A stretch of 48,791 nt of DNA from Chrysochromulina tobinii (Eukaryota). The stretch spans positions 1 to 48,791 of the forward strand of contig JWZX01003146.1 in assembly GCA_001275005.1 (NCBI GenBank). The letters run 5' to 3'. A program made the position numbers and the translations under genes. The notes under the pieces were generated by a model, which worked only from the letters and a program-made list of their open reading frames with translations, had not been told where the DNA came from and did no database searches. The first letter of the stretch is position 1, and each line of letters opens with the position of its first letter. Positions 7,761 through 21,794 of the stretch are shown one piece after another.

Positions 7761-9443
7761 CTATTGCCCTGAGAGCCAGCCGTCAACCGTCGCCTTCTGC
7801 TTGTGAAGCGCATCCATCGTCTTACATGTGCCCTGTGACCTCCGGCGCACCGCTGCGAGCATCGTCTCGCCCACTGCGCCGTGCCCGCGTAGCCTGGCCT
7901 CGAGAGCCGCGAGCCGCGTCGCCAGGCTGATCAACGAGGTGCTATGTGCCGGGAGCAGCTGCATCAGCGTCTCGGCGTGCTCGGCGAGCGCACGAACGGC
8001 GAGGGCGATGAGCGCAGGGGCGGCGCGTTCTTCCCCAGCGAGGGCCTCGAGCGCTTGGCAGCGCAAGGCGCGCGTCTGCACCGCTATCCAGTGTGTGGCT
8101 GCGACCTCCCTCTGGAGTATTCCGAGGGCGCCTTCAGCTGCGCTTCGCGCGTCCTCCCAACTGTCGTACTGCTTCGGCTTGAACCCGACGATCTTGCCAC
8201 GCAGTTTCTGGACGCTGAAGACGCTTGCGTGCGCACGGCGCGCGAGGTTCATGTCACCGTCAAGGTCGTCCAAGAGCTGGTCGACTGGATCGAGCTCCTT
8301 GAGGGCACATGCGCTCGCGGGCTGGGCGCATCGCGAGCAGCCGCATTCAAACCCAAAGAGCGTCGCGAGGAAAGCACGCCGCTCGCTTCGCGGGAGGGTC
8401 GCGAGCTCGTCCTGATAACAGATGGTGAGCTGAGCTCCTGCGGGCACCTCATCGAGGGTGTACACGCGCGCCCGGCCGCTCGCCGCCTCGACTGGCGTCA
8501 ACGTGCAGTTCGGCCAGCACGAGTGGTTCAACATTGAGACTCTCTCGTAGATGAGTCCGATCGGATCCTCGATTCCTTCGATGCGCGTCTGGAAAGCATT
8601 GTTGATGACGGCAGCGTGCGCGGCCATGGCGTCGGCTTCGCTCACCCCCTTCATCTCACGCAGCCACATTGCCGCCGCCTTGGCGTCGTCGCCGCCGTCA
8701 CGGGGCGCCCCCGGCGCAGGACGCAGACCCGTCGCGCGATTGAGCAGCTTCCGAGCAAGGACCAGTGCAGCCATCGTGCCTGCGACGTCGTCGTCCTCGC
8801 TGTGCACTATGTGAGGCCGTTCCGTGAGAACGACGCTGCCGGCGGGGAGGGCGACACGCGCGTACAGGCCGCGCTCGCCGTCGACCTCCCGTTGCTCGAC
8901 GAGTGGAGACAACGCCGCAGTCTCAAGCTCAGCCACCGTGCCGCCCAATGACGGATTGTAGCAATGGTGGGCCGCACGATGTACGAGAATGGCCATTTCG
9001 ACCGCACTGCTGCATGAGGAGGCACCATTGAGGACGACCTGCGCGCAGGAGCCGAGTTGCTTAAGGCGCGCATCCTTGGTGCCGGAGGCAACATCGGCGA
9101 TGGCAGCATGCACCGCCCGCTCCGAGTCGTGCGATACGGGAAAGCGCAGCACGTCCTCGTCTGCTGCCCGGCCAACGTGTGCACAGCGAACACGCGACAA
9201 GAAGCGGCGGATCTCGAGTGGAGAGAGCGGCAGCGAATTGCCAACGCATTCCAGTGCAGCGAGGGCAGCACGGCGTAGGTCTTTCGACGCATCGACGGCG
9301 GCACCGCGGTCTTTGGCTTCATCGACAGACGTGGAGTCCTTGGGTTCATCGACGGTAGCGAAAAAGTCCTTGATGGATCTGCGAAAGACTATTGCCGCTG
9401 CGCCTAGAGCGGCGGCCAGAGTAAGAGCGATGGCCTTCGACAT
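7761..9443 (-). CDS. SET-domain (SMYD-like) lysine methyltransferase with N-terminal hydrophobic anchor
   Basis: RGLYA, NHSCWPN, QLTICY and post-SET FECGCSRC. An in-frame TGA directly precedes the ATG. Confidence 0.85.
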   Translation of the reverse strand: MSKAIALTLAAALGAAAIVFRRSIKDFFATVDEPKDSTSVDEAKDRGAAVDASKDLRRAALAALECVGNSLPLSPLEIRRFLSRVRCAHVGRAADEDVLRFPVSHDSERAVHAAIADVASGTKDARLKQLGSCAQVVLNGASSCSSAVEMAILVHRAAHHCYNPSLGGTVAELETAALSPLVEQREVDGERGLYARVALPAGSVVLTERPHIVHSEDDDVAGTMAALVLARKLLNRATGLRPAPGAPRDGGDDAKAAAMWLREMKGVSEADAMAAHAAVINNAFQTRIEGIEDPIGLIYERVSMLNHSCWPNCTLTPVEAASGRARVYTLDEVPAGAQLTICYQDELATLPRSERRAFLATLFGFECGCSRCAQPASACALKELDPVDQLLDDLDGDMNLARRAHASVFSVQKLRGKIVGFKPKQYDSWEDARSAAEGALGILQREVAATHWIAVQTRALRCQALEALAGEERAAPALIALAVRALAEHAETLMQLLPAHSTSLISLATRLAALEARLRGHGAVGETMLAAVRRRSQGTCKTMDALHKQKATVDGWLSGQ

Positions 9444-9448
9444 TCACG

Positions 9449-9459
9449 TGGCTCCTTTG
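9449..9459 (+). repeat. Target-site duplication, left copy (TGGCTCCTTTG)
   Basis: Identical to 21071-21081. The edge bases overlap the microsatellite, so the true length may be 9-11 bp. Confidence 0.9.
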
Positions 9460-9502
9460 AGTGAGTTGTGAGTGAGTGAGTGAGTGAGTGAGTGAGTGAG
9501 TT
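9459..9502 (+). repeat. 5'-terminal (GAGT)n tract in two runs: GAGTGAGTT + GT(GAGT)8T
   Basis: Read directly from the sequence. It is the reverse complement of the 3' tail unit. Confidence 0.95.
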
Positions 9503-9505
9503 CGA

Positions 9506-12500
9506 ATGTCGGGCGTCTTGCTCGCGTCGGCTCCTCCCCTTACGGTAACTCAGAAAAATAGCGCGCGCGGCGCGACTGGCGCAACGTACGTCCAGGCAGA
9601 CACACACAACCAGGCAGCATCACGACGCCCACGCAAGCCAACGCTGCCCCGCCCGCATGCAGCGGAAAGAAAAAGGGGGGTCCAACAGGTCAACGTCACC
9701 ATGCAGGACTCCATGCGGCTATTGTCTACGGTGACACAGACGGGCGACAAGCAGATCGGCAGCACCACGATGCCCCCGCAAGCCAACGCTGCGGCGCCCG
9801 CATGCAGTGAAGAAGAAAAAGAGGGGCTAGACATCTGCAGACAACACGCCTTTTTGGCAGGGCTCAAAAGACGATGGACAAGAACCACGCGCGCGCATAC
9901 GTCAACGTCACCACAAACCAGGCAGCACACTCCATCGGCAGACTACGCTTCGAGCTCAACAAGCTCGCCGCGCTGGGCAACCCGCAGACAGCCGCACACG
10001 CCATCCGGCTGCTCAAATGGGCAGCAGCGCAGCAGCAGCGACGTCTCGCAAAGAAGATTGCCCAATCTGACGCGCGCGACGTCACAGCACGCGCCGCTGC
10101 ACAAAATGACGATGATCAGAACGATGACGACAAGATTGATTGCGAAAATGAACATGACGATGATTGCGATTACAGCAACGATTGCGACCACCAGCAGCGA
10201 CTGCCCACGCAGCTCAAAGCGTTACCCCGCGCCGGAGCCGAGGCGCGAGCCCGCTGGGCCCTCGCCCGCGCCAGCGGCGCACTGTACAAGAATACGTGCG
10301 GCACGGGCAACGCAGCCGGCACTGCCGAAGCCCTCCGAATTTGGAACCACATCTCCGTCGTCTGCTGCCGAGTCGACTGCCACGCACTCGTCGACCTCAA
10401 GGCGGCACGCCGCCAAGCCCGCGCCCAAGGCAGAGCAAACTTCATCCCTGGAGACGGGTGCGCGGGACCGTTCTGCTCCGCTGATCACCGACGAAACCGC
10501 TTTGCAAACCGGCAGCTCGCCCAAGCCGACCAGATCGACCGCGGAGAAAGACTGCTGGCCCGCTGGCCCACCGACCGAATGGACAAGGAAATCTACGTGT
10601 ACAACAACGAGCACGCGAACACAAGAGCAGCCGAAGCCCGACAAACCGCCAAACGCCCGACTGCCTAATCCCATGAGAGCGATACTGATTGCAGCGACGA
10701 TCATGATGACGACAATGATGACGATGACGATAATGACAACTGCAATCATGATGATAGATTCGAGTACCAAAACTAATGACCCGAGTACCATGACCCGAGT
10801 ACCAAAGACGATGATGAGAGTGAAGAACAACTTGACTGTGATGAGTAGCCTCGACCTCACCACTGACAACGATTCTCCAAAGCCCATCAAGTTGATGAAC
10901 CCATCGGATCTCACGACAATGAAAGAGATGAACCTGATTGCGACGACGATTATGATGATGATGATGATGACAGCAGGTGACAGCGACGGAGCCGAAGGCA
11001 CGAACGGCACCGCGAACGACGGCAACAGCAACGACGCCGGCGACAGCGGAAACAAAGGAGGCGCCGATGGCGACAGCGCCGGCGGCAGCAAGGGCAGCGA
11101 CGGCAGCGGCAACGGCAGCGGCGGCAAAGGCGGCGGCAGCGGCGGCAACCCCGGCGGCAGCGGCGGCAACCCCGGCGGCGGCGGCGACAACCCCGGCGGC
11201 AGCGGCGACAACCCCGGCGGCAGCGGAGACAACCCCGACGACGACGACGAAGCGGATGGCGAAGCCGATGGCGGAGACGAGCCCACCGACGAGAATGCTG
11301 ACAAGGACGACACGAAGGACATCCCAAGACATCGATGGGAAGAGACGTATAGCCCATCATGGACGAACCCACCCACAACGCACGTCGACCAACAAGAAAG
11401 GCAAGCCATGCTAGCTGCGCTGGAGATCCAACGCCTACTTCACGGAGCAGCCGCGCGCGCCCGGCTCCTGGTACGCGCCGACGAACGAGAGCCGAATATA
11501 GACTGGCCACCGAACAATTGCACTGCCGATCAACTCCAAGTACTTGAAGAGACAGCCATCAAGTCCATCTACACGTTCGCGAGCAGCCCTGAGAAGATCA
11601 ACGAGAAAGAGCTGACCACCATCTTGGACTACATCACACGAGCTGAAGAGATACAAGAGATCGACAACATCAACTTATCCTACATCATCACGGAGAATAC
11701 GTCAAACTTCCTGTACCAGTGGATGATACGACACAGCGGCACGTACCCAAGACAACAAGTACGGAAGGGACTCAGGACGCTGGCCGTAAAGGTCGCGGAG
11801 GCGGAGACCAAGGCAGAGCAAGACCGCATCGTCTACGCACGGCTAGCCCAACACGCAGAAGAAGACGGCGAGCACGAGCACAGCTACTACAAGTTGGTCG
11901 CCACCAACGTCAACGGTCGACTACGTCTCAAAGATCGTGAACACCTTCTTCAACAAGACGATGAGACGCTCGATGACGAGGCCGTTCGAGGCGATCAGAC
12001 AATGCAAAGGGAACCCGACTGCGCCCTCTCAACAATCTTAGGCTGGCTGCAAGACCCGACGTCGAACGTAGCGGGCGTGTGGGCCGTCGAGACGCACCTC
12101 AACGACAAGGACGCGGACGAAATCATCGACCACCTGAGCACTTTCCATCCGGCCATCGGCATGCTAGTCTCGATCAAGATCAAAGAGGACTCTAGCGCCG
12201 GGCTTGCTTTTCTGTACCGCGTCGACGTTCTTGAACCCCTCACGCCCCTGCAGCCTCCCTTTGCATTCCACACCGCAGATGGGCATCTACATCCAAAGCC
12301 AGACCGCCTGCCCAAACCTCGACCCGAGAATGACCGACTTGTAAGACACGTATGGCATGGCCGCCTCGCCGATATCAGACTAAAGTGGAGCCGCGACTCG
12401 ACCGAGATGATCACTACGGGCGTCTACGTGCCGCAAGTCAATCGCGAGGCCGACAACATCCTGTGGTTCGAGATGGCTACCCAAGATTGGAGCACGTACA

Positions 12501-15500
12501 ACGCTCTCCGAGGTGCACAGGGCGACTTCAACGCGACGCCACGCTACACAGGGAAGAAGCCCCAGACGGCGCAGAAGCAGGCGAATCAACGGCTCGATCA
12601 ACTCCTAGCGACGACAAAATCCGAGCCGATCGGCGACTTGGCTCAATGGACTCACCAACAACCTGTAGGGACGGCCGGACAAGCACCCGATGCCAGAGGC
12701 GTTACAAGAACCACCATCGACCTCAACGTCATCGGCGAGGCGCTTGCACCGCGCTTGAAGGCCTGCGATGTGATGCCCAAGACGAGCGGCGACAAGAGTT
12801 TTCACAGGTCGGTGGGCTACTACTACAAGGTCAGAGGCCAGGAACCAACGAAGGCACAAGTGGCGCGCCCCAGCACCATCGACAAGATCGGCAAGTCAAA
12901 AAAGGAAATCGAAAGCGAGACGCCAACAGGCTGGAAACTGTGGATCGACCTGATGCCCATCGCCGTGAAAGACGCCGCCTGTCTGCTGAACGGCATAGCG
13001 CCAGGAGAGCACATCAGGCCGGACCTGGTCGCAGCAGCATTCTCAAGGTCGAACCCGGTCACCGCCATCGCCGTATTCAAGTACCACATCATGGAGACTG
13101 CCCTCGACCTTCAACGCGAGAAAGCGGGCAAGGGCATCAAGCAGACGACGAAGACAGAATATCTACGAGGACTCGAAGAAAAATGGATTAAGATGATCTC
13201 GACGGTCAATGCGCTGCCCGAGGACGACAAGAGCTTCGACAAGCATGCGGAGGTCAGGCCGGAGTACGAAGCCTCCTTCAAGATGAGAGAGATACCGAGA
13301 GCGATCGTCAAGCTCCCCGAGCTCAACCTGAACAACAAGGCGCGCAAGGCCCGCGAGATGGCACTCGTCGAGAAGGCCTACAATGCTGCCGTCGAAAAGT
13401 ACTCGAGGCGACTCAACGACGCCACGCTCGACCTGCTCGCAGAGGAGATGGAGGAGCTCTCGGAAAAGACCGAGGCAAGAGGCGGGTTCCAGCACGAGGC
13501 GTGGCGCCTAGCCAAGGAGCACTCGATCGCAGCGCGCACCAAGTCCTTCCAACCGAGGCACGCGTCCGGCATCAACACGCTGCAGCTCGATGAGAGTGCC
13601 AAGAAGGGCGAAAGCCCGACGGTATCGGGCGACAAGTTTCGGGTACTCCTCGCCAACAGATACGCAGCGAAACAGGCCGCGCGCCCCGGCCACCCCGGCC
13701 CATGGCTGCACCTCGCCGACGCCGTGAATCTCTTGCACCCCCAGCACGCAGACATCAGTACTGATTCGTCGGCCGAAGATGGGATTCGCTACGACCACCC
13801 CTCCCTGAAATCCGTGATTGAGACCGGAGCGTGCCCGGCCCGCGCTCAAATCCAGCACGCGACCGAGATTGAGTCCATCATGATTGCCCTCGACCATATG
13901 CAGAGCAGCCTCGAAGCAGATACGCGCAGAACTTTTGAAGCGTTTGATTCGCAGATCAACAGAGTCAAGATGAACATGGCCACTGGCACGGACAAGTTTC
14001 ACGCCTACTTCATCCGCAAAGGAGGAGCGCTGGGAAAGAAGGTGTACAAGTACCTGCTCTCAAGGCTCTACGAAGCTGAGATGATGGACAAGGCAGGCCT
14101 GACCTGGCAGATTGCAATGGCGCTCAAGGCCAAGCGCAACCCGCACACAGTCAAAGGCTACCGCGACATTATGGTCAGCTCGCACGACTGGAAGATCATC
14201 ACGGGATGCATGGGGAGCCAATACCAAAGGTGCGTCGAGCGCCGCCGTCCAAGTGAACAGATCGCCTACGAGAGTGGAACCTCGAGTTCGTGCACTCGGA
14301 TCACACTCGGTCACCGCGCGCGCACGACTTTGGCAATGCACCAAAGAGAAAGGCGAGCTGAGTTTATGTCCGACTTTAGTTCATTCTTCCCGAGCATCAT
14401 CCACAAGGTCGTTTTCGAAGCAGAGCGACGAGTCGGAGCCCAACGGAGTCACACGAGGATGCTTTGGGCAACGCACGCGAGAGTAGTCGCGTCGATCCGC
14501 ACGGCCTCAGGCATGACGCCAACGAGACCAATCAACCGAGGCGTCGGCCAAGGCTGCAAACTGGGCGGCCCCCGATCACTAATCGTCACCCTACCCATCA
14601 TCGAGCTTCAACGGCAATGCGTTCCGGCACAGAAGCTTATCGCCCCCAAAGGATTTGGCAGGCACGGTTGTACAAGTTGGATGAGCGACGACCAAACCTC
14701 CGACCCACCGCCTTTTGACAGTCTTGTACAGCTCGCAATCGATGTCTTCATGCACGGCGCCGAGCTTTGCGCCCAACTCCAAGTAGATCATGAAGCAGAA
14801 GCAGCCGACAAGACGAGCGCGAAGCTCTCGCACTACAAGGACAGAGGCACGGTCTGCACCGACGACGAGACAAACTTTGTGCACGTCATCAAGCAAGCAG
14901 GTCGACTCGCACAGCGACCACTCGCAAGATGCCAAGAGTACAAGCAGATAGGCACAGAGAGCACCCATGGCACCAACTTTAGCGCCATCGTCAAGAGGAC
15001 CACGGACAACATCATCGCTCTGATCACGCACGTCTCCAAGCTCGGCGTCACCAATGCGGAGCACGACATCCGGATGGCCAATTCCATCATCTTTGGGACG
15101 CTCTCTTTCCCAAGCCGAGGTACGCCCTTCCCCGCACGTGACTTGGAGCGAATCTCAACTGCCTGCCGACAGGTGCTTGTCAACCACGGCCATCTCAACA
15201 AGTCCGAGCCGGCCGCGATCAATTTTGCCCCGCGCAGTGCAGGAGGACGCGAACAAGTCGTTCCGCAGGCAGTGGCCGATGCATCGCTCGTCACGCAGAC
15301 CTTGTTGCTCCTCAACAACGCCGATGGAGATCGCGACAAGGCGGCCATCGAGAGCCTCTTCTTCGTCAACGCGTGCGCCTTTGGATGGACGAGCACCATC
15401 GAGGAGCCAAACCCGATCGATTTCGACGTAACCGAGGTACAAGATCTCCTACTCGAGGCGCTGCCGTGGGACGCGTTCCAGCTCGCGTTGATCCGCCTCG

Positions 15501-18500
15501 AACTACGCATCAGCAAAACTACGCGAGACAGCCAGAGCGCATGCTCACTGCGAGCGCACGTGCCTGCAGACGCCATCCCGCCCGAGGAGAAGCTCGTCCA
15601 CTGGAACGAGGCGGACAACTCCAATCTCAGGTCCCCGCGCATCGAGCCCGGTGGCAGGCCACCATTGATGCCCCGATGGCCACGATCCCGGCGATTGTGC
15701 TTCTTAGGGTTGCACAGGTTTGACCAGCTGCTGCTAGGAGTACGACAACCGTTCAAGAGGCCAACGAAGAACGAGCAGTCGAGCCGCGGCGAAGGATTCG
15801 CTCACGACGGCTACAAATACTTGGAGCCCGAAGGACGAGCCCATGGGTGGTACCCGTACTACGCCAACGACCCGACCGTGTCCGACCTGTTCCTGCACGA
15901 CCAAGACTCTCTCTCGGCGATCGACGAAACCACGATGCGCGACTACCACGTCACGGTCCGATTCAAATCGTTCACGACGCTAACCGCAGAGCTTCGAGAA
16001 CGTCACGTGCACCTAGATCAAGAAGACCGGAGAAATCTCTCGGCGCTCTGCGAGATCTTCAAAGCTGCGCACCGCTACGAACAAGGCACGAACGACCTTA
16101 TCGACGCGATCCATGCGTTCGCGCACAAGGCGGCCACAGCGATGCTCGAGAGGGACCAGGAAATGCTCGAGAACATCGCAGAGTTTGCCCAACAGCAAGC
16201 AGGGCAACGACTCGGCGACAAGTTCGTCTTCATCGGCCGCAAGTTACGAGCTCAACGACCGCGCGAGGAAATGTTGGAGCAGATCAGGAAGAGCGAGGAG
16301 GTCACCGAGCACACGGACGAGCACGTCTACGAAACACAGCGTGAGTACAGCGAGCAGCACACGTACGAGTATCTGAGCAGGGAGGCCATCATTGACATCG
16401 CCACCAAGTACGAGAATGCGTGGGAGCATGAGAGGAAGACGTTGCCAAGGGACCTTGTCAAGTACCTCAAAACAGGAAGCCTGCACACTGCCGCCGAGTG
16501 CATCGCCGCGCTCCAGGAATCTGACCTACGCGGTACTCAGGCCCGTTCGTTCGCAGAGCACCTGCAACAGCTGGACGCGAGCGGCACGAGACCTGATCTC
16601 AAGGAACGGCACGGAGCACTTGACGATGAGGCGACCGCAAGAGCGATCATCGCCACTACCGAGGAGCTCATCGGCACGTGGGCGCCGAGCCAGTGGCACG
16701 CGGGAGAATCGCCGGCGGAGACTCAGCTGGTACAAGACCGCACCCGCCTCCAGCGCACATGGCGCCGACCAAGAAGGCAGACGTACGTTCGGGGCGGCAT
16801 TGATGATCGAGGGAAGCACACCCTCTCCCTCGAGCCCTCGAAGCAGGACAAGGCGCACGCTCGACGATTCTTCATGCCTCTCAACCCGTACTCGCACACG
16901 GATTCGTGCTACAGGGCGGTCAACGCATCGGGCGGTCTCCTCTTCAAGAACTCGACGAGCATCTATGACTGCATCAACCCCCAGGTATGCTGCACGCCTC
17001 TCCTTGCCATATTCACCCGCGTACGCAAACTCGAAGACGGCACAGGTATCAAGGTCGTCGACTGGACGGGGGAGGAGATCACGGTCAAGATCCTTGACAA
17101 GGAGAAACTCAAGATGAACGCCGACCAGGACCGCGAACTTCTTCAACGACTCGCTCCAATGGAAGACCAGCGCAAGTACACGGCGGTGTGGTTTGGAGAC
17201 GGCGGGCGGAAGGGCGCTGACGGGGCACTGGACAGGCGCGTCTCTTGGGGCGCTGTCGTCGTATGGAAATCGTGCGGCACGCTGATGCGCAACTACCACC
17301 TTGGCGCGTTGCATCCCGAGTGCGACATCCAACACGGAGAGCTCATGCAGATCTACAAGTCCACGGAGTTTTGCATCGAGCAGCTTCGACAAGGAGAAAC
17401 GGTACGGATGCTGTGCGGCTCTGACTCCCAAACCTGCGCAGATGACGTCGAGGCAGCACGATCGGCACGGAACCACCGAGACTTGCACGACTACGATGCG
17501 AGCATCATGGTCGAGACTATCGTCCACAACATCATGACGATCGAGTCGAAAGGCGGCATCTGGGACCTGTTCCGAGTGCCCGGCCACTCGTACACGCCCA
17601 ACGTCATCGCGGACGCGCTAGCGACGGCAGCCCAAACATGTCAACAGTTCAGCCAGGAGGTCGAGATGAAGACGGACCGGGCTTTCGTCGTGCTCTGCGA
17701 CCGCACGGAAGATCAACCTTTCTGGCTGCAGTACGACAAGGGCGCCAAGATGTTCCGATACCTACGTCTTCGAGGTCAACAACGCAGAGTCGAACGAGAA
17801 CTACGAGAATTCCACGCCAAGCACGCCAAGAATCTCATCGCCCAGACCAAGCAGGATCAGGCCTTCAACCTCATCGAGATCATCAAGATGAGGCTGAAGA
17901 GCTCTTACGGAGTCCCGCTCTCGAGAGCGATGCTCGACCGACGAGCCCTTGCCCTAGCCCAAGAACAACTAGAACACGAACGGATCGAAATGCAGAAGAA
18001 GCTCGACACGATCATCTACCCGATCCTCAACTACGACGCCCTCCCAAGCCTTGGCATCAAGATGGACGCGCCGCGATGGACGACCGCGGTCGAGCAGTTT
18101 GTGGCAGAACCTTGGCTCACGAGATCAGCGACCAGGTTCAACGTGTCGTTCCAATTCGCCAACACCGCCCTCCGCACGGATGCCAGCGTCATCCCGGGCG
18201 TTACGGTGTGCCCCTTGTGCAAAAGAGATGTGAGCCCAACGGTATGGCACTTGATGACCGAGTGCACGCTGAAGACGTGCGAGCTTAACATGCCGCACCT
18301 CCCGCCAAGAGTACCTTTAACGACGACTGCCCAAGACCCAACGTCCACAGACGACGAAGCGACAGCCCCTTCGGCGAAAGTGGCCAGAGGAAGCAACGCG
18401 TACCTGGCCCAGGAGATCTTGTGGACGCTGCGAGAATTCCGACCTGCAGGCGAAGCTTGGCCAACAGACCTGCTGGAGCCGAACGAGAAAAACACCTTCC

Positions 18501-19936
18501 TGAAGGAGTTCAACAGGGCCTGCACGACGCTCGAGCTCTCGTGCCAGAGCCGCCAGCACGATGAGGATCGAGGAGTACCGCCGGTACTGGACAATGACGG
18601 CGAGATCGCCAAGTTTGACACGCTCCGCTTCCTCGCTTGCCACCTACCTCGCGATCCGCTCGCGTCGGTCTTCAAGATGCCCAAGGACGAGGAGGGCAAG
18701 GTGAACAAGAACCAGGCCGAAGAAATGCACGAGAAGAAGAAGACGTTCTTCGAAGTGTGGGAGCGACTACACCAGCTGATAGTCGAGGCCATCAACCAAG
18801 CGAAGGCCAAGTACAACCGCATGAGCGCGGCAAGCCGTGCAGCATCCCGAGAAGACGATCAAGCACCACAATTCCGAGAGACGAACGCCTACCAGATCAA
18901 CGAGACGACGCCAGCACGAGCCGAACGAGCACAAGCACAACGGAGCCATCGAGATGAACGGAATGAAAGGCGGAGCGCTGCCGACCTCCTCGAGCTGAAC
19001 AAGAAGAACGAGATGCAGAAGAAAGGCAACCACTTCAACAAGGTCGTCGCCACGTCCCAGATCGGCCACATGTTACAAGCAAGGATCGACGGGCACGTGA
19101 CGCTCTCGCAGCCCTTCGTGCTACCAGCGAATCTGACTTTTGTCGAACGGACATCGAGATGGACGCGAATGGCTGAACCCACCGGCGCAGGAGAAGAAGA
19201 AGAACACGAAGACGCGATGGAAGTAGACTCAACAAGGAACTCAAGCAGACTATCTTACGATGCAGACGACGATTCGAGCAGACGACAATCCGAAGGGAGC
19301 TCCCTGGTCAGCTCGAGGGCGGTGACGCCGCCACCGAACTCTTGGGGAGCATTGGCAGATGATGACGAGGGCAGCTACAGCGGAATTTACGACGAAGGCA
19401 GTGACATGAGCGGCAAAGGCAAGACCAGTGACGTCCCGGGCGACGATGGCGGCAAAGGCGGCAGCAGCGAGCTTCAAGGCAGCGACGGCGGCAAGGGCGG
19501 CAACAACAGACGAGGGAGCGGCAAGGGCAAAGGCGGCGATAGTGGAACCCATGGCGGTAAGCACGGCGACAGGAGTAGCGGCAGTGGGCTCAGAGGCAGA
19601 GGCGGCGGCAAGGGCAGCAGCAACGAGTTCCGCAACGACGGCGGTGGCAAGGGCGGCAGTGGCAGGCAACACGGCAGCGGCAAAGGCAAGGGCGGCAGCA
19701 AGGAGCTCCACGACAGCGACAGCAGTAAGCACGACGGCAGCGGACTCCACGATGATGGTTCTAGCTCAGCAGGGTCAAAGAGCAGTCACCACAGCGCAAA
19801 GAACGGCAGCAGACGGATGATTAAGAGACAGAAACGTGCAGAACAACGAAGAGAATTGAGCAGCGACAGCCACGCGGCTCAACAATCAGCCGAAGACGCA
19901 AGAGCAGAACAACCGGAGAAGAAGCAGAAGCAATAA
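9506..19936 (+). CDS. Retrotransposon polyprotein: APE endonuclease (~11885-12820), reverse transcriptase (~13970-15255), RNase H (~17180-17630), CCHC knuckle (~18209-18265). True start uncertain, possibly 10673 or ~10952
   Basis: APE: ATNVNG, VETHL, GDFNA, TIDL, SFH. RT: ATGTDKF, GYRDIMV, EQIAY, DFSSFFPSIIH, RGVGQGCKLG, MSDD, YKQIG, APRSAGG. RNase H: WFGDGG, HGEL, SDSQ, VPGH..NVIADALA. Zinc knuckle: CPLC-x8-H-x4-C. The frame is open for 3476 codons. Confidence 0.9.
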   Translation: MSGVLLASAPPLTVTQKNSARGATGATYVQADTHNQAASRRPRKPTLPRPHAAERKRGVQQVNVTMQDSMRLLSTVTQTGDKQIGSTTMPPQANAAAPACSEEEKEGLDICRQHAFLAGLKRRWTRTTRAHTSTSPQTRQHTPSADYASSSTSSPRWATRRQPHTPSGCSNGQQRSSSDVSQRRLPNLTRATSQHAPLHKMTMIRTMTTRLIAKMNMTMIAITATIATTSSDCPRSSKRYPAPEPRREPAGPSPAPAAHCTRIRAARATQPALPKPSEFGTTSPSSAAESTATHSSTSRRHAAKPAPKAEQTSSLETGARDRSAPLITDETALQTGSSPKPTRSTAEKDCWPAGPPTEWTRKSTCTTTSTRTQEQPKPDKPPNARLPNPMRAILIAATIMMTTMMTMTIMTTAIMMIDSSTKTNDPSTMTRVPKTMMRVKNNLTVMSSLDLTTDNDSPKPIKLMNPSDLTTMKEMNLIATTIMMMMMMTAGDSDGAEGTNGTANDGNSNDAGDSGNKGGADGDSAGGSKGSDGSGNGSGGKGGGSGGNPGGSGGNPGGGGDNPGGSGDNPGGSGDNPDDDDEADGEADGGDEPTDENADKDDTKDIPRHRWEETYSPSWTNPPTTHVDQQERQAMLAALEIQRLLHGAAARARLLVRADEREPNIDWPPNNCTADQLQVLEETAIKSIYTFASSPEKINEKELTTILDYITRAEEIQEIDNINLSYIITENTSNFLYQWMIRHSGTYPRQQVRKGLRTLAVKVAEAETKAEQDRIVYARLAQHAEEDGEHEHSYYKLVATNVNGRLRLKDREHLLQQDDETLDDEAVRGDQTMQREPDCALSTILGWLQDPTSNVAGVWAVETHLNDKDADEIIDHLSTFHPAIGMLVSIKIKEDSSAGLAFLYRVDVLEPLTPLQPPFAFHTADGHLHPKPDRLPKPRPENDRLVRHVWHGRLADIRLKWSRDSTEMITTGVYVPQVNREADNILWFEMATQDWSTYNALRGAQGDFNATPRYTGKKPQTAQKQANQRLDQLLATTKSEPIGDLAQWTHQQPVGTAGQAPDARGVTRTTIDLNVIGEALAPRLKACDVMPKTSGDKSFHRSVGYYYKVRGQEPTKAQVARPSTIDKIGKSKKEIESETPTGWKLWIDLMPIAVKDAACLLNGIAPGEHIRPDLVAAAFSRSNPVTAIAVFKYHIMETALDLQREKAGKGIKQTTKTEYLRGLEEKWIKMISTVNALPEDDKSFDKHAEVRPEYEASFKMREIPRAIVKLPELNLNNKARKAREMALVEKAYNAAVEKYSRRLNDATLDLLAEEMEELSEKTEARGGFQHEAWRLAKEHSIAARTKSFQPRHASGINTLQLDESAKKGESPTVSGDKFRVLLANRYAAKQAARPGHPGPWLHLADAVNLLHPQHADISTDSSAEDGIRYDHPSLKSVIETGACPARAQIQHATEIESIMIALDHMQSSLEADTRRTFEAFDSQINRVKMNMATGTDKFHAYFIRKGGALGKKVYKYLLSRLYEAEMMDKAGLTWQIAMALKAKRNPHTVKGYRDIMVSSHDWKIITGCMGSQYQRCVERRRPSEQIAYESGTSSSCTRITLGHRARTTLAMHQRERRAEFMSDFSSFFPSIIHKVVFEAERRVGAQRSHTRMLWATHARVVASIRTASGMTPTRPINRGVGQGCKLGGPRSLIVTLPIIELQRQCVPAQKLIAPKGFGRHGCTSWMSDDQTSDPPPFDSLVQLAIDVFMHGAELCAQLQVDHEAEAADKTSAKLSHYKDRGTVCTDDETNFVHVIKQAGRLAQRPLARCQEYKQIGTESTHGTNFSAIVKRTTDNIIALITHVSKLGVTNAEHDIRMANSIIFGTLSFPSRGTPFPARDLERISTACRQVLVNHGHLNKSEPAAINFAPRSAGGREQVVPQAVADASLVTQTLLLLNNADGDRDKAAIESLFFVNACAFGWTSTIEEPNPIDFDVTEVQDLLLEALPWDAFQLALIRLELRISKTTRDSQSACSLRAHVPADAIPPEEKLVHWNEADNSNLRSPRIEPGGRPPLMPRWPRSRRLCFLGLHRFDQLLLGVRQPFKRPTKNEQSSRGEGFAHDGYKYLEPEGRAHGWYPYYANDPTVSDLFLHDQDSLSAIDETTMRDYHVTVRFKSFTTLTAELRERHVHLDQEDRRNLSALCEIFKAAHRYEQGTNDLIDAIHAFAHKAATAMLERDQEMLENIAEFAQQQAGQRLGDKFVFIGRKLRAQRPREEMLEQIRKSEEVTEHTDEHVYETQREYSEQHTYEYLSREAIIDIATKYENAWEHERKTLPRDLVKYLKTGSLHTAAECIAALQESDLRGTQARSFAEHLQQLDASGTRPDLKERHGALDDEATARAIIATTEELIGTWAPSQWHAGESPAETQLVQDRTRLQRTWRRPRRQTYVRGGIDDRGKHTLSLEPSKQDKAHARRFFMPLNPYSHTDSCYRAVNASGGLLFKNSTSIYDCINPQVCCTPLLAIFTRVRKLEDGTGIKVVDWTGEEITVKILDKEKLKMNADQDRELLQRLAPMEDQRKYTAVWFGDGGRKGADGALDRRVSWGAVVVWKSCGTLMRNYHLGALHPECDIQHGELMQIYKSTEFCIEQLRQGETVRMLCGSDSQTCADDVEAARSARNHRDLHDYDASIMVETIVHNIMTIESKGGIWDLFRVPGHSYTPNVIADALATAAQTCQQFSQEVEMKTDRAFVVLCDRTEDQPFWLQYDKGAKMFRYLRLRGQQRRVERELREFHAKHAKNLIAQTKQDQAFNLIEIIKMRLKSSYGVPLSRAMLDRRALALAQEQLEHERIEMQKKLDTIIYPILNYDALPSLGIKMDAPRWTTAVEQFVAEPWLTRSATRFNVSFQFANTALRTDASVIPGVTVCPLCKRDVSPTVWHLMTECTLKTCELNMPHLPPRVPLTTTAQDPTSTDDEATAPSAKVARGSNAYLAQEILWTLREFRPAGEAWPTDLLEPNEKNTFLKEFNRACTTLELSCQSRQHDEDRGVPPVLDNDGEIAKFDTLRFLACHLPRDPLASVFKMPKDEEGKVNKNQAEEMHEKKKTFFEVWERLHQLIVEAINQAKAKYNRMSAASRAASREDDQAPQFRETNAYQINETTPARAERAQAQRSHRDERNERRSAADLLELNKKNEMQKKGNHFNKVVATSQIGHMLQARIDGHVTLSQPFVLPANLTFVERTSRWTRMAEPTGAGEEEEHEDAMEVDSTRNSSRLSYDADDDSSRRQSEGSSLVSSRAVTPPPNSWGALADDDEGSYSGIYDEGSDMSGKGKTSDVPGDDGGKGGSSELQGSDGGKGGNNRRGSGKGKGGDSGTHGGKHGDRSSGSGLRGRGGGKGSSNEFRNDGGGKGGSGRQHGSGKGKGGSKELHDSDSSKHDGSGLHDDGSSSAGSKSSHHSAKNGSRRMIKRQKRAEQRRELSSDSHAAQQSAEDARAEQPEKKQKQ
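9874..10668 (+). CDS. Candidate ORF1 of the retrotransposon, overlapping the long ORF in another frame
   Basis: Strong C/G-ending codon pattern and a natural-looking protein with an acidic tract and a Cys/His cluster (CCRVDCH...CAGPFCSADH). The long-ORF frame over the same bases reads like an out-of-frame translation (T/M/R-rich). Confidence 0.5.
   Translation: MDKNHARAYVNVTTNQAAHSIGRLRFELNKLAALGNPQTAAHAIRLLKWAAAQQQRRLAKKIAQSDARDVTARAAAQNDDDQNDDDKIDCENEHDDDCDYSNDCDHQQRLPTQLKALPRAGAEARARWALARASGALYKNTCGTGNAAGTAEALRIWNHISVVCCRVDCHALVDLKAARRQARAQGRANFIPGDGCAGPFCSADHRRNRFANRQLAQADQIDRGERLLARWPTDRMDKEIYVYNNEHANTRAAEARQTAKRPTA
11140..11236 (+). repeat. 21-bp coding tandem repeat (GGSG[G/D]NP)n in the retrotransposon
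   Basis: About five ggcggcagcggcg(g/a)caacccc units. Confidence 0.85.
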
Positions 19937-20329
19937 GAATAACCGAACAGGATAATCACAGCTCTGAATAGCCCAACTGCATGATTGAGTTCTGATTGCG
20001 AAACGATTAACAGACCGAGGCCGATTCATTAAGAGATTGAGAGAGCATGATTATGAGACTGAATGCGACTGAGAGAGACTGAAACTGAAAAACCAACCGC
20101 GAACGTGATCGAGAGCCGAGTGATTGAGAATACAAAAACAGACAAAGTGACTAAGCCGATGACTAAGATCCTGAGTACACGCTACGAAGGGACTCACGCC
20201 CATGTGATTCTCTCCGCACAGAAGAGAACAATGGCGGCAAACGAGACAGCGAGGCCCTAGAGAGAGAGTGAGAGCAAGAGTGCGAGAGCGAGAGAGCCCA
20301 CAAGACCGAGATGATGAAGGGCGCAACAT

Positions 20330-21050
20330 ACCGCGATGACACGCGCCGAAGGTCGGTCCTCGACAGGTTTACAGCCCCTTGCGTGGCTCAGCCCTAGCCC
20401 GCTCGGCGCGCTGAGGGACCAACTTCTCGGTGCAAGGAGTAACTCCCGAGCCCGGAAGTTCGAGACCGAGATGCTCATTCTGATCGGCAAGGTGACCACC
20501 AAATCCTGTATCTCTGATGGACACAGCCTTAACGGGCGGTCAAGCACGTGAGGGGGTCGCCGCAAGGCTCCTACTCGTTCACCTGGCTCTTCGGAGCCGG
20601 GGCGGCGACCCCGATCTCTCGGCCGGCGGGCCAATGAAACGCAACCGAACGACAGGGGGTCGACGGGACGGACAGTGAGAGGGGGAGGCCCTAACGGGCC
20701 AAACCAGCGGCTCTCTCACGTCCCGTCGACCAGTCGTATGCCATGTGGGTACACACCCGTGCATACCCGCAAGGGACCCACCCACTGCATGACCGATACA
20801 GCGTCTGTTCCTCCCATGGGGGGGTTGGCAGTTTCGCCGGGCAGTGGTGTGGGGCACGGAGAGAGCATAGCGAGTGAGTGAGTTACACTCACTCAGCATA
20901 GCGACGCCCGAACAGGAATCCGTTGGATTCAAAACACGGCCATGAGTATCGGGTGAGGATACTGCATGTGCTGCTATGGTATACCCTATGAGCCTCAGTA
21001 GGTATATCGACCCGTACCCCGTATTGTTCCACGGTGTGTCTGTGTCTCAA
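20330..21050 (+). ncRNA. Highly structured non-coding 3' region of the retrotransposon RNA; function unknown
   Basis: Perfect stems at 20553-20563/20602-20612 (11 bp) and 20658-20670/20719-20731 (13 bp). cUUCGg hairpin at 20582-20601; GGCCC-UAAC-GGGCC at 20687-20700; CCC-GCAA-GGG at 20766-20775; GAATCC-GTT-GGATTC near 20916-20930. Confidence 0.55.
20864..20904. repeat. Mini inverted-microsatellite insert GTGAGTGAGTTACACTCACTC flanked by the 10-bp direct repeat AGCATAGCGA
   Basis: Direct repeats at 20864-20873 and 20895-20904. The 21-bp core has a (GAGT) arm and an (ACTC) arm. Confidence 0.85.
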
Positions 21051-21051
21051 T

Positions 21052-21070
21052 AACTCACTCACTCACTCAC
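21052..21070 (+). repeat. 3' tail A(ACTC)4AC of the retrotransposon
   Basis: Follows AATAA and directly precedes the right TSD copy. Confidence 0.95.
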
Positions 21071-21081
21071 TGGCTCCTTTG
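21071..21081 (+). repeat. Target-site duplication, right copy (TGGCTCCTTTG)
   Basis: Identical to 9449-9459. Confidence 0.9.
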
Positions 21082-21416
21082 GCCCGTTTTCCCCACACCA
21101 GGGGCGACGACCCGGCGCGCGTGGCAACGCTCTTTCGCTCGGCGTCGGAGCCCCAATTCACAATGAAAAAGGAGGGGCTGGGCATGTAATCTCCGTTTTC
21201 CGCTCGGTGGACAGCCCGTCGACCTTAGCGCGAGCCCCCATACATATGAACTCACACCACACGTAAAAGGAGGGTGCTCCCTCGTGTGGGATTTGAGCGC
21301 GACTGTCGCGTTACGTTCACACGTCTATTCATACGTCTCGGCTGGGCAGGTGGCGACTGGCGACCAACCGCCGAGGGGGTCGGGACGCAGTGGCTGGTTG
21401 CCAGAGCGTCCACAGC

Positions 21417-21794
21417 ATGTCGCTCAAGATGACTGGCCAGATGGACTGGCAGGACTATGCCACGTACAGCCAGTACCATCCTGACAACCTCAAAAAGCCG
21501 CCGCTAGTCTTCGCAGATCATGTCAAGGCTCCAGCCCCACTTGCAACGCTCACGGAGATAGACAAAAAGGTCTTCGGCGCGTGGGGCCACGCACTCTGCT
21601 GCGAACCTGCGTATGGAAAGAATGAGACCTGCACACGACTCAAGGAACGCGTCACGCCAAAGGTCGGGCAGACATGGGATAAGGTAATTCGGATAGAACG
21701 GGGAAAATCCATATCGCAGACAGCCATGTACGGCGGCAGCTTGCGTGAGATGTCCTTCGAGGAGATCGTGGAGGCGCGCGGCAAGAAGGGATGA
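21417..21794 (+). CDS. Small hypothetical protein (125 aa)
   Basis: ATG-started ORF with host-like codon use and non-repetitive, globular-looking composition (MSLKMTGQMDWQDYATYSQYHPDNL...). No domain recognised. Confidence 0.55.
   Translation: MSLKMTGQMDWQDYATYSQYHPDNLKKPPLVFADHVKAPAPLATLTEIDKKVFGAWGHALCCEPAYGKNETCTRLKERVTPKVGQTWDKVIRIERGKSISQTAMYGGSLREMSFEEIVEARGKKG

Follow-up and report, generated by a model that had tools for sequence, protein, structure and literature searches.

Background

How the 5' end of a LINE is joined to the second cut strand is a step of retrotransposition that is still debated. In primate and human LINE-1 (L1), priming on the tail from both sides has been described before as a rare event: the accessible part of Meyer et al. 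(2010; PMC2837659) describes 39 verified L1 loci in primates at which a 5' poly(T) lies within the target-site duplication (TSD). The authors attribute them to variants of twin priming or to dual priming; both target junctions show microhomology, and no copy is full-length. Such second-end priming on the L1 tail is rare, and its trace is a poly(T) without internal features. L1 products that consist of the tail alone have been described as well, as solitary poly(A/T) tracts that account for 157 of 6,418 somatic events in the relevant part of a recent preprint (bioRxiv 10.1101/2024.08.27.596794). Among other elements, endonuclease-positive Penelope-like elements such as Pen2a_Av commonly carry an inverted pLTR copy within one TSD, according to the sections available of PMC3846280. 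The tandem-repeat tails of RTE (PMC6007223) and of squamate CR1-L3 and Rex (PMC6050309) are described there as pairing with the target over one to a few bases, which spreads a microsatellite. The routes of 5' joining are covered in PMC4245944, whose accessible part reports ZfL2-1 without 5' inversion, and the corresponding part of PMC9977147 contains nothing alike. In the literature surveyed, which mostly excluded subscription papers, Repbase reports and supplements, we found no LINE with routine inverted microsatellite ends.

The locus described here lies in a window of 48,791 nucleotides, the whole stretch of DNA that was analysed, which is GC-rich DNA from a gene-dense eukaryote, judging by the neighbouring genes. 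It is a hairpin in the 3' UTR of a LINE copy, and represents a secondary, almost body-less insertion there. Like the primate L1 poly(T) heads, the family places an inverted copy of its tail between the 5' TSD and a truncated body, and it shares with them microhomology at the target junctions and the impossibility of separating twin from dual priming; TSDs measure 7-20 bp at the primate loci and 6-13 bp in this family (PMC2837659). The primate loci have a poly(A) tail that is often missing, L1 parts of at least 61 bp and no internal microhomology, as far as the accessible part of that report describes them (PMC2837659). Unlike them, this LINE has a tail of tetranucleotide units whose unique junction identifies the template, keeps head and tail together, has bodies down to 0-2 nt as well as a head on an 11.6-kb copy, and shows weak internal microhomology. 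Neither poly(A)/poly(T) nor the L1 TTTT/A nick motif is found here, the tail being (ACTC)n. The footprint would have arisen in a way comparable to the L1 poly(T)-head events, but it is not one of them.

The remaining systems differ more clearly. Solitary L1 tracts are single rather than two inverted arms in the events described (bioRxiv 10.1101/2024.08.27.596794), and a homopolymer L1 tail, unlike an (ACTC)n tail, cannot reveal read-through into the body. Penelope-like elements, as described in part in PMC3846280, have a GIY-YIG endonuclease, pLTRs of ~200 bp and self-priming, whereas this LINE combines a predicted APE fold with a LINE-type reverse transcriptase (RT) and inverts only its microsatellite tail. 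In the accounts of RTE, CR1-L3 and Rex the repeats stand at the 3' end only (PMC6007223, PMC6050309), whereas this LINE leaves two inverted runs per event, which form a hairpin if the body is short. What is new is a tetranucleotide tail that tags its template and a series of insertions from 0 nt to full length. Because the four-letter tail repeat has a unique junction, the template of each head, its phase and the point where it stopped can be read from the head itself; the footprint, in which both arms are present and the body is all but absent, marks the extreme of the series.

Results and discussion

A hairpin built like an insertion

The 41-base hairpin consists of a 21-nt insert (20874-20894) between two copies of a 10-mer, 20864-20873 and 20895-20904 (Table 1). 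A preliminary description of this DNA had claimed a 10-bp direct repeat flanking a GAGT arm and an ACTC arm, and the letters at 20864-20904 are exactly as it claimed, except that its single C spacer between the arms disappears: the C is in phase with the 9-nt ACTC repeat at 20886-20894, so the arms abut directly. The left arm had further been identified as the reverse complement of the 3' tail junction, including its TA. This proved correct over 12 exact nucleotides, with 21051-21062 as the sole match. Read on the minus strand, the GAGT arm is 2 nt of body followed by tail, and the entire insert is head, 2 nt of body (TA) and tail.

Table 1. Coordinates of the LINE element and of the mini-insertion in its 3' UTR (window positions).
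Feature	Position	Strand	Remarks
Left 11-bp TSD of full-length element	9449..9459		
(GAGT)n head of full-length element	9460..9502	+	Two segments, each with a GTT end
Long open frame	9506..19936	+	3478 aa stop to stop from 9500
APE-type endonuclease domain	11873..12850	+	Predicted fold matches LINE-1 endonuclease, E 4.9e-12
Non-LTR reverse transcriptase	13700..15400	+	SDD in place of YADD; profile, fold, aligned motifs
RNase H-like domain	17150..17680	+	D, E, D, H, N, D invariant in 6/6 aligned proteins
CCHC-like knuckle, putative	18209..18265	+	By-eye reading of translation
3' UTR containing the footprint	19937..21052	+	Last ~60 nt in tens of copies
Left copy of 10-bp TSD of mini-insertion	20864..20873		Single in related copies
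GAGT arm, 12 nt, ending in GTTA	20874..20885	+	Reverse complement of tail junction 21051-21062
ACTC arm, 9-nt perfect repeat	20886..20894	-	Minus-strand reading is GAGT head
Right copy of 10-bp TSD of mini-insertion	20895..20904		
(ACTC)n tail	21053..21070	+	
Right 11-bp TSD of full-length element	21071..21081		

A GAGT run followed by an ACTC run within 24 nt occurred in 0 of 200 order-1 and 0 of 200 order-3 Markov windows, and the window has only two ACTC runs of at least 8 nt, both inside the LINE element. The flanking 10-mer has no further occurrence in the window. Direct repeats of 10 bp at similar spacing number 41 in the window, mostly in low-complexity DNA; the repeat is not rare by itself, and it is the combination with the arms that counts. 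On the evidence set out below, the insertion is likely the work of the same LINE family, by two-ended priming on an (ACUC)n RNA tail and joining of the products.

The host element is a divergent LINE

The element carrying the hairpin is 11.6 kb long, with a (GAGT)n head, a body and an (ACTC)n tail inside an 11-bp TSD. The GTT at the end of each head segment is complementary to the AAC of the tail junction. Judged by predicted folds and profiles, the element is a divergent APE-type LINE with the order APE-RT-RNase H, and it has the traits of APE-type non-LTR elements: an RT, a predicted APE fold upstream of it, variable TSDs, 5' truncation and a 3' tail. For the RT, a 24-sequence profile (E 2.4e-29) and the predicted fold (E 1.3e-17) both match LINE-1 ORF2p; profile and fold lean on aligned relatives, as Pfam finds nothing credible, GIY-YIG included, on the 3478-aa frame or the three domains. 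The model of the APE region is of low confidence (mean pLDDT 59.5), its fold matches the LINE-1 endonuclease (E 4.9e-12), and Y185, G217 and D283 are conserved; PDB sequences gave 0 matches to this region, hence no direct sequence match. It carries SFH at the position where the L1 endonuclease has SDH. Two of the six aligned RNase H-like proteins match Pfam RNase_H, below the curated cut-off. Among cluster representatives there are 83 relatives, the best 33% identical, several of which match RVT_1, Exo_endo_phos or RNase_H. A Penelope-like identity was rejected, given the predicted APE fold, the lack of a GIY-YIG match and the absence of long terminal repeats from the element.

Several further features of the element and its surroundings were noted. 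A possible ORF1 is a 285-aa frame with a Cys/His cluster (9811-10668, plus strand), which lies in a different phase over the beginning of the long frame; there the long frame continues uninterrupted for ~490 codons whose composition is odd. The full-length element lies just ~6-16 bp upstream (9443-9459) of the codon at which a SET-domain gene (7761-9443, minus strand) apparently starts, which puts 11.6 kb between that gene and its upstream DNA. Four relatives of 2300-3700 aa (P0006, P0022, P0031 and P0044) have a divergent RT, and APE, RNase H or DUF4326 matches occur in some of them, which suggests a wider group of very long LINEs mostly missed by Pfam.

Related copies without the insert

To set the hairpin beside other copies, contigs from 7 of 20 sequencing runs (X1, X6, X7, X9, X11, X14 and X15) were compared with the window; runs X17-X20 share next to no words with it and lie outside the comparison. 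The seven runs possibly stem from one campaign and do not count as independent biological samples. In five of the seven (X1, X6, X9, X11 and X14), position 20843 is followed by 18 letters resembling the skipped flank and then by 20895, a joint that amounts to one 10-mer and no insert. Depth at this joint in the DNA runs was 346 versus 44 for single-copy sequence in X1, 276 versus 37.5 in X6 and 316 versus ~41-44 in X9, placing the insert-free allele at ~7-8 times single-copy depth. X11 and X14, both with the joint, are RNA runs. In X7 the insert-free state shows as a loose end, with two contigs that leave the window at 20873 and continue like 20905 onward, and one more diverged variant is present; the contigs of X15 include no insert-free joint.

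According to the preliminary description, a single 10-mer with no insert in the aligned 3' regions of other copies would mark a secondary insertion, and this is what the alignment revealed. Related copies hold the 10-mer once without the insert, so the hairpin was inserted secondarily and does not belong to a constant RNA structure. The insert-free copies are ~10% diverged from the window in the footprint region, so the polarity rests on parsimony and on the TSD. A constitutive structure of the 3' UTR RNA, such as a hairpin or a pairing partner of the tail, would have in its favor a stable predicted fold (z -4.5 for 41 nt) and an arm that could pair with the tail over 12 nt. We consider it extremely unlikely: the motif is not invariant among the run contigs; most copies lack it, among them the dominant variant of the RNA runs; the arm pairs locally rather than with the tail in the fold predicted for 20840-21070; and a search of 9300-21600 against Rfam returned 0 matches.

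The secondary insertion is probably not a fresh one-off. X7 contains a 74-nt contig that crosses the insert with zero differences at a depth of 157 versus 68 for single-copy sequence, corresponding to about two copies with the insert; given this roughly twofold depth, the footprint was probably inherited by more than one copy. The same two or so insert-bearing copies (157 versus 68) would also suit an ancestral hairpin, lost from the other copies by deletion between the two 10-mers, an event that would yield an identical empty allele. Such a history is very unlikely, as at least two differently diverged copy types lack the insert, and an ancestral hairpin would itself have to be explained, for which the TSD and arms point to an insertion.

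Two other patterns in the same runs concern the 3' UTR more broadly. A variant ~88% like 20331-21042 lies on a 2177-nt RNA contig (X11 record 1, X14 and X15) with other sequence on both sides; its depth is 570-1600, versus 5-15 for neighbouring host contigs in X15, though contig depth says little about expression. Candidates for this variant are a sister LINE, a SINE-like partner and a host transcript. Across 20994-21042, summed depth in the DNA runs goes from ~550-650 to ~2400-2500 over the last ~60 nt, and because of this jump most copies appear to be extremely short.

Mini-insertions of the same design elsewhere

Scanning metagenomes for three GAGT units followed, at a distance of at most 30 nt, by two ACTC units gave at least 120 loci. 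The family's tail junction occurs in 6 of the 120 listed loci, representing five sites: L045, L046, L089, L094/L099 and L097. Each of the six lies next to a direct repeat of 9-13 bp, compared with 4 of the 114 other listed loci for repeats of at least 9 bp; one of these four (L034) is the footprint locus itself. The bodies at the five sites are 3' suffixes of the element of 7, 32, 6, 15 and 11 nt, respectively (ambiguous letters counted), and none retains 5' unique sequence. A further site, L031/L062, has no body and a 6-bp repeat, half of which consists of repeat letters; its composition matches the window (r 0.98). Pre-insertion alleles with one TSD copy were seen at two places, the footprint locus and L045, whose empty site is contained in L094, and not at the other sites.

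The claim that like-built, TSD-flanked insertions exist elsewhere is thus borne out in the metagenome, with bodies of 0-32 nt, and the footprint joins the series with a 2-nt body when its minus strand is read. In total, head and tail share one TSD at the full-length copy, five mini sites and two body-less sites. The hairpin had been interpreted as the scar of an event that put tail repeats on both cut ends, which were then joined; the single-10-mer copies and these insertions elsewhere support that reading and two-sided repeat addition with it.

They also bear on host repair as an explanation. A staggered break in the 3' UTR could have been patched by a host polymerase copying the nearby DNA tail, first inverted and then direct, with no LINE synthesis at all. 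End-joining is known to produce inserts templated by nearby DNA, and here the exact template of the left arm (21051-21062) is only ~170 bp away; the extra 5' nucleotides of ZfL2-2 likewise derive from flanks, in the part of PMC4245944 that covers them. We nevertheless regard host repair as unlikely. It is weakened by the like layout at L031/L062 and L046, where BLAST found no element body within 5 kb on either side, and by the minis having TSDs of LINE-like length and microhomology to the tail at their target ends.

MITE-like deletion derivatives, with microsatellite TIRs and a DNA transposase, or repeats added by telomerase are hardly credible sources of the minis. Inverted ends with TSDs do resemble a MITE, and telomerase inserts at breaks are reported in mammals (PMC2246262). 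However, TSD length varies from 6 to 13 bp rather than being fixed, all bodies are 3' suffixes with no 5' unique sequence kept (the two observations on which a MITE or DNA transposon identity was rejected), the arms read into the element's own junction, and the element encodes RT and predicted APE folds. Targeting of an existing microsatellite was ruled out, as the runs are inverted rather than co-oriented.

Because the scan pattern required a head, the scan cannot show that heads are the rule. GAGT heads found without requiring one precede the truncation points 20515 (X7) and 20967 (X11 and X14); the other listed loose ends, before 20259, 20331, 20525 and 20962, continue with non-GAGT sequence and may be diverged sister elements or headless junctions. 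Other organisms' GAGT-rich DNA, with no TSDs, accounts for most of the listed scan loci. Head and tail without an adjacent TSD occur at four GC-rich loci (L024, L051, L072 and L104), and at L029 the flanking repeat is offset by about 10 nt. We rejected L043, L047, L077 and L109, where the direct repeats consist of repeat letters, and L093 and L096, which lie in lower-GC DNA without the family junction. In viral contigs, the tail-junction scan gave 0 matches and the RT scan none. Two tail-junction matches in prokaryote genomes lie in bacterial, coding-looking DNA unlike the element and were put down to chance.

Microhomology and a model of two-ended priming

At the 16 primed ends of eight events, 30 bases in all could belong to either the target or the repeat, where the null gives 10.6 on average, and none of 18,750 simulated sets reached this sum. 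Without L045 the sum is 25 over 14 ends versus 9.3 (P 1.4e-4). L084 was left out of this test, and the two target junctions were pooled. Between head and body, microhomology at four minis is 2, 1, 2 and 3 nt (P about 0.02, with L045, at 0 nt, left out), which is only suggestive. Given this weakness, end-joining and a template jump are both possible. By eye, no consensus is visible in 18 nick contexts, and the L1 TTTT/A motif is not among them.

The head segments end in GTT and the footprint arm in GTTA, which complement the unique junction in front of the tail; the tail itself was therefore the template, and synthesis must have restarted at least once. Heads occur at eight different body boundaries, from which we infer that plain target-primed reverse transcription of a transcribed 5' end cannot have produced them. 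The best reading would be twin priming (on one RNA) or dual priming (on two RNAs), the two not being separable. In the simplest model, whose enzymatic steps we infer from the DNA sequence, both cut strands are primed on the RNA tail and then joined. The endonuclease would nick the two strands 6-13 bp apart, and each 3' end would pair over 0-5 nt with the RNA tail and be extended with GAGT repeats, the extension sometimes reading into the unique AAC/TA junction. One extension would normally enter the body and stop anywhere from 0 nt to 11.6 kb; at the footprint, one side would have stopped 2 nt into it. The two new strands would then be united by end-joining or a template jump, and fill-in would leave the TSD.

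Two-ended tail priming recurs in this LINE family and may be routine. We advance only tentatively, and with more doubt than confidence, the stronger proposal that the family normally makes its 5' junction by second-end priming on its RNA tail, so that every insertion, from 0 nt to full length, gets a head. If so, the cDNA would land on the inverted tail head, and integration would be symmetric, both ends receiving repeats in the manner of telomerase; each event that fails would then leave the seed of a hairpin microsatellite behind. Body-less insertions of this kind also offer a concrete way for short palindromic microsatellites to arise. Changing the tail would make both twin versus dual priming and the need for a head testable.

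Sites of insertion and similar hairpins

L084 has a 7-bp repeat and an imperfect head and comes from another sample. Together with L096 and L093, likewise from other samples, it belongs to a set of GAGT/ACTC hairpins with flanking repeats of 7-9 bp and without the family junction, possibly other families working the same way. L045 and L094 are two independent minis, from different samples, that lie ~45 bp apart in homologous flanking DNA. This spacing hints at an insertion hot spot, and the footprint, inside the family's own UTR, may be another such case.
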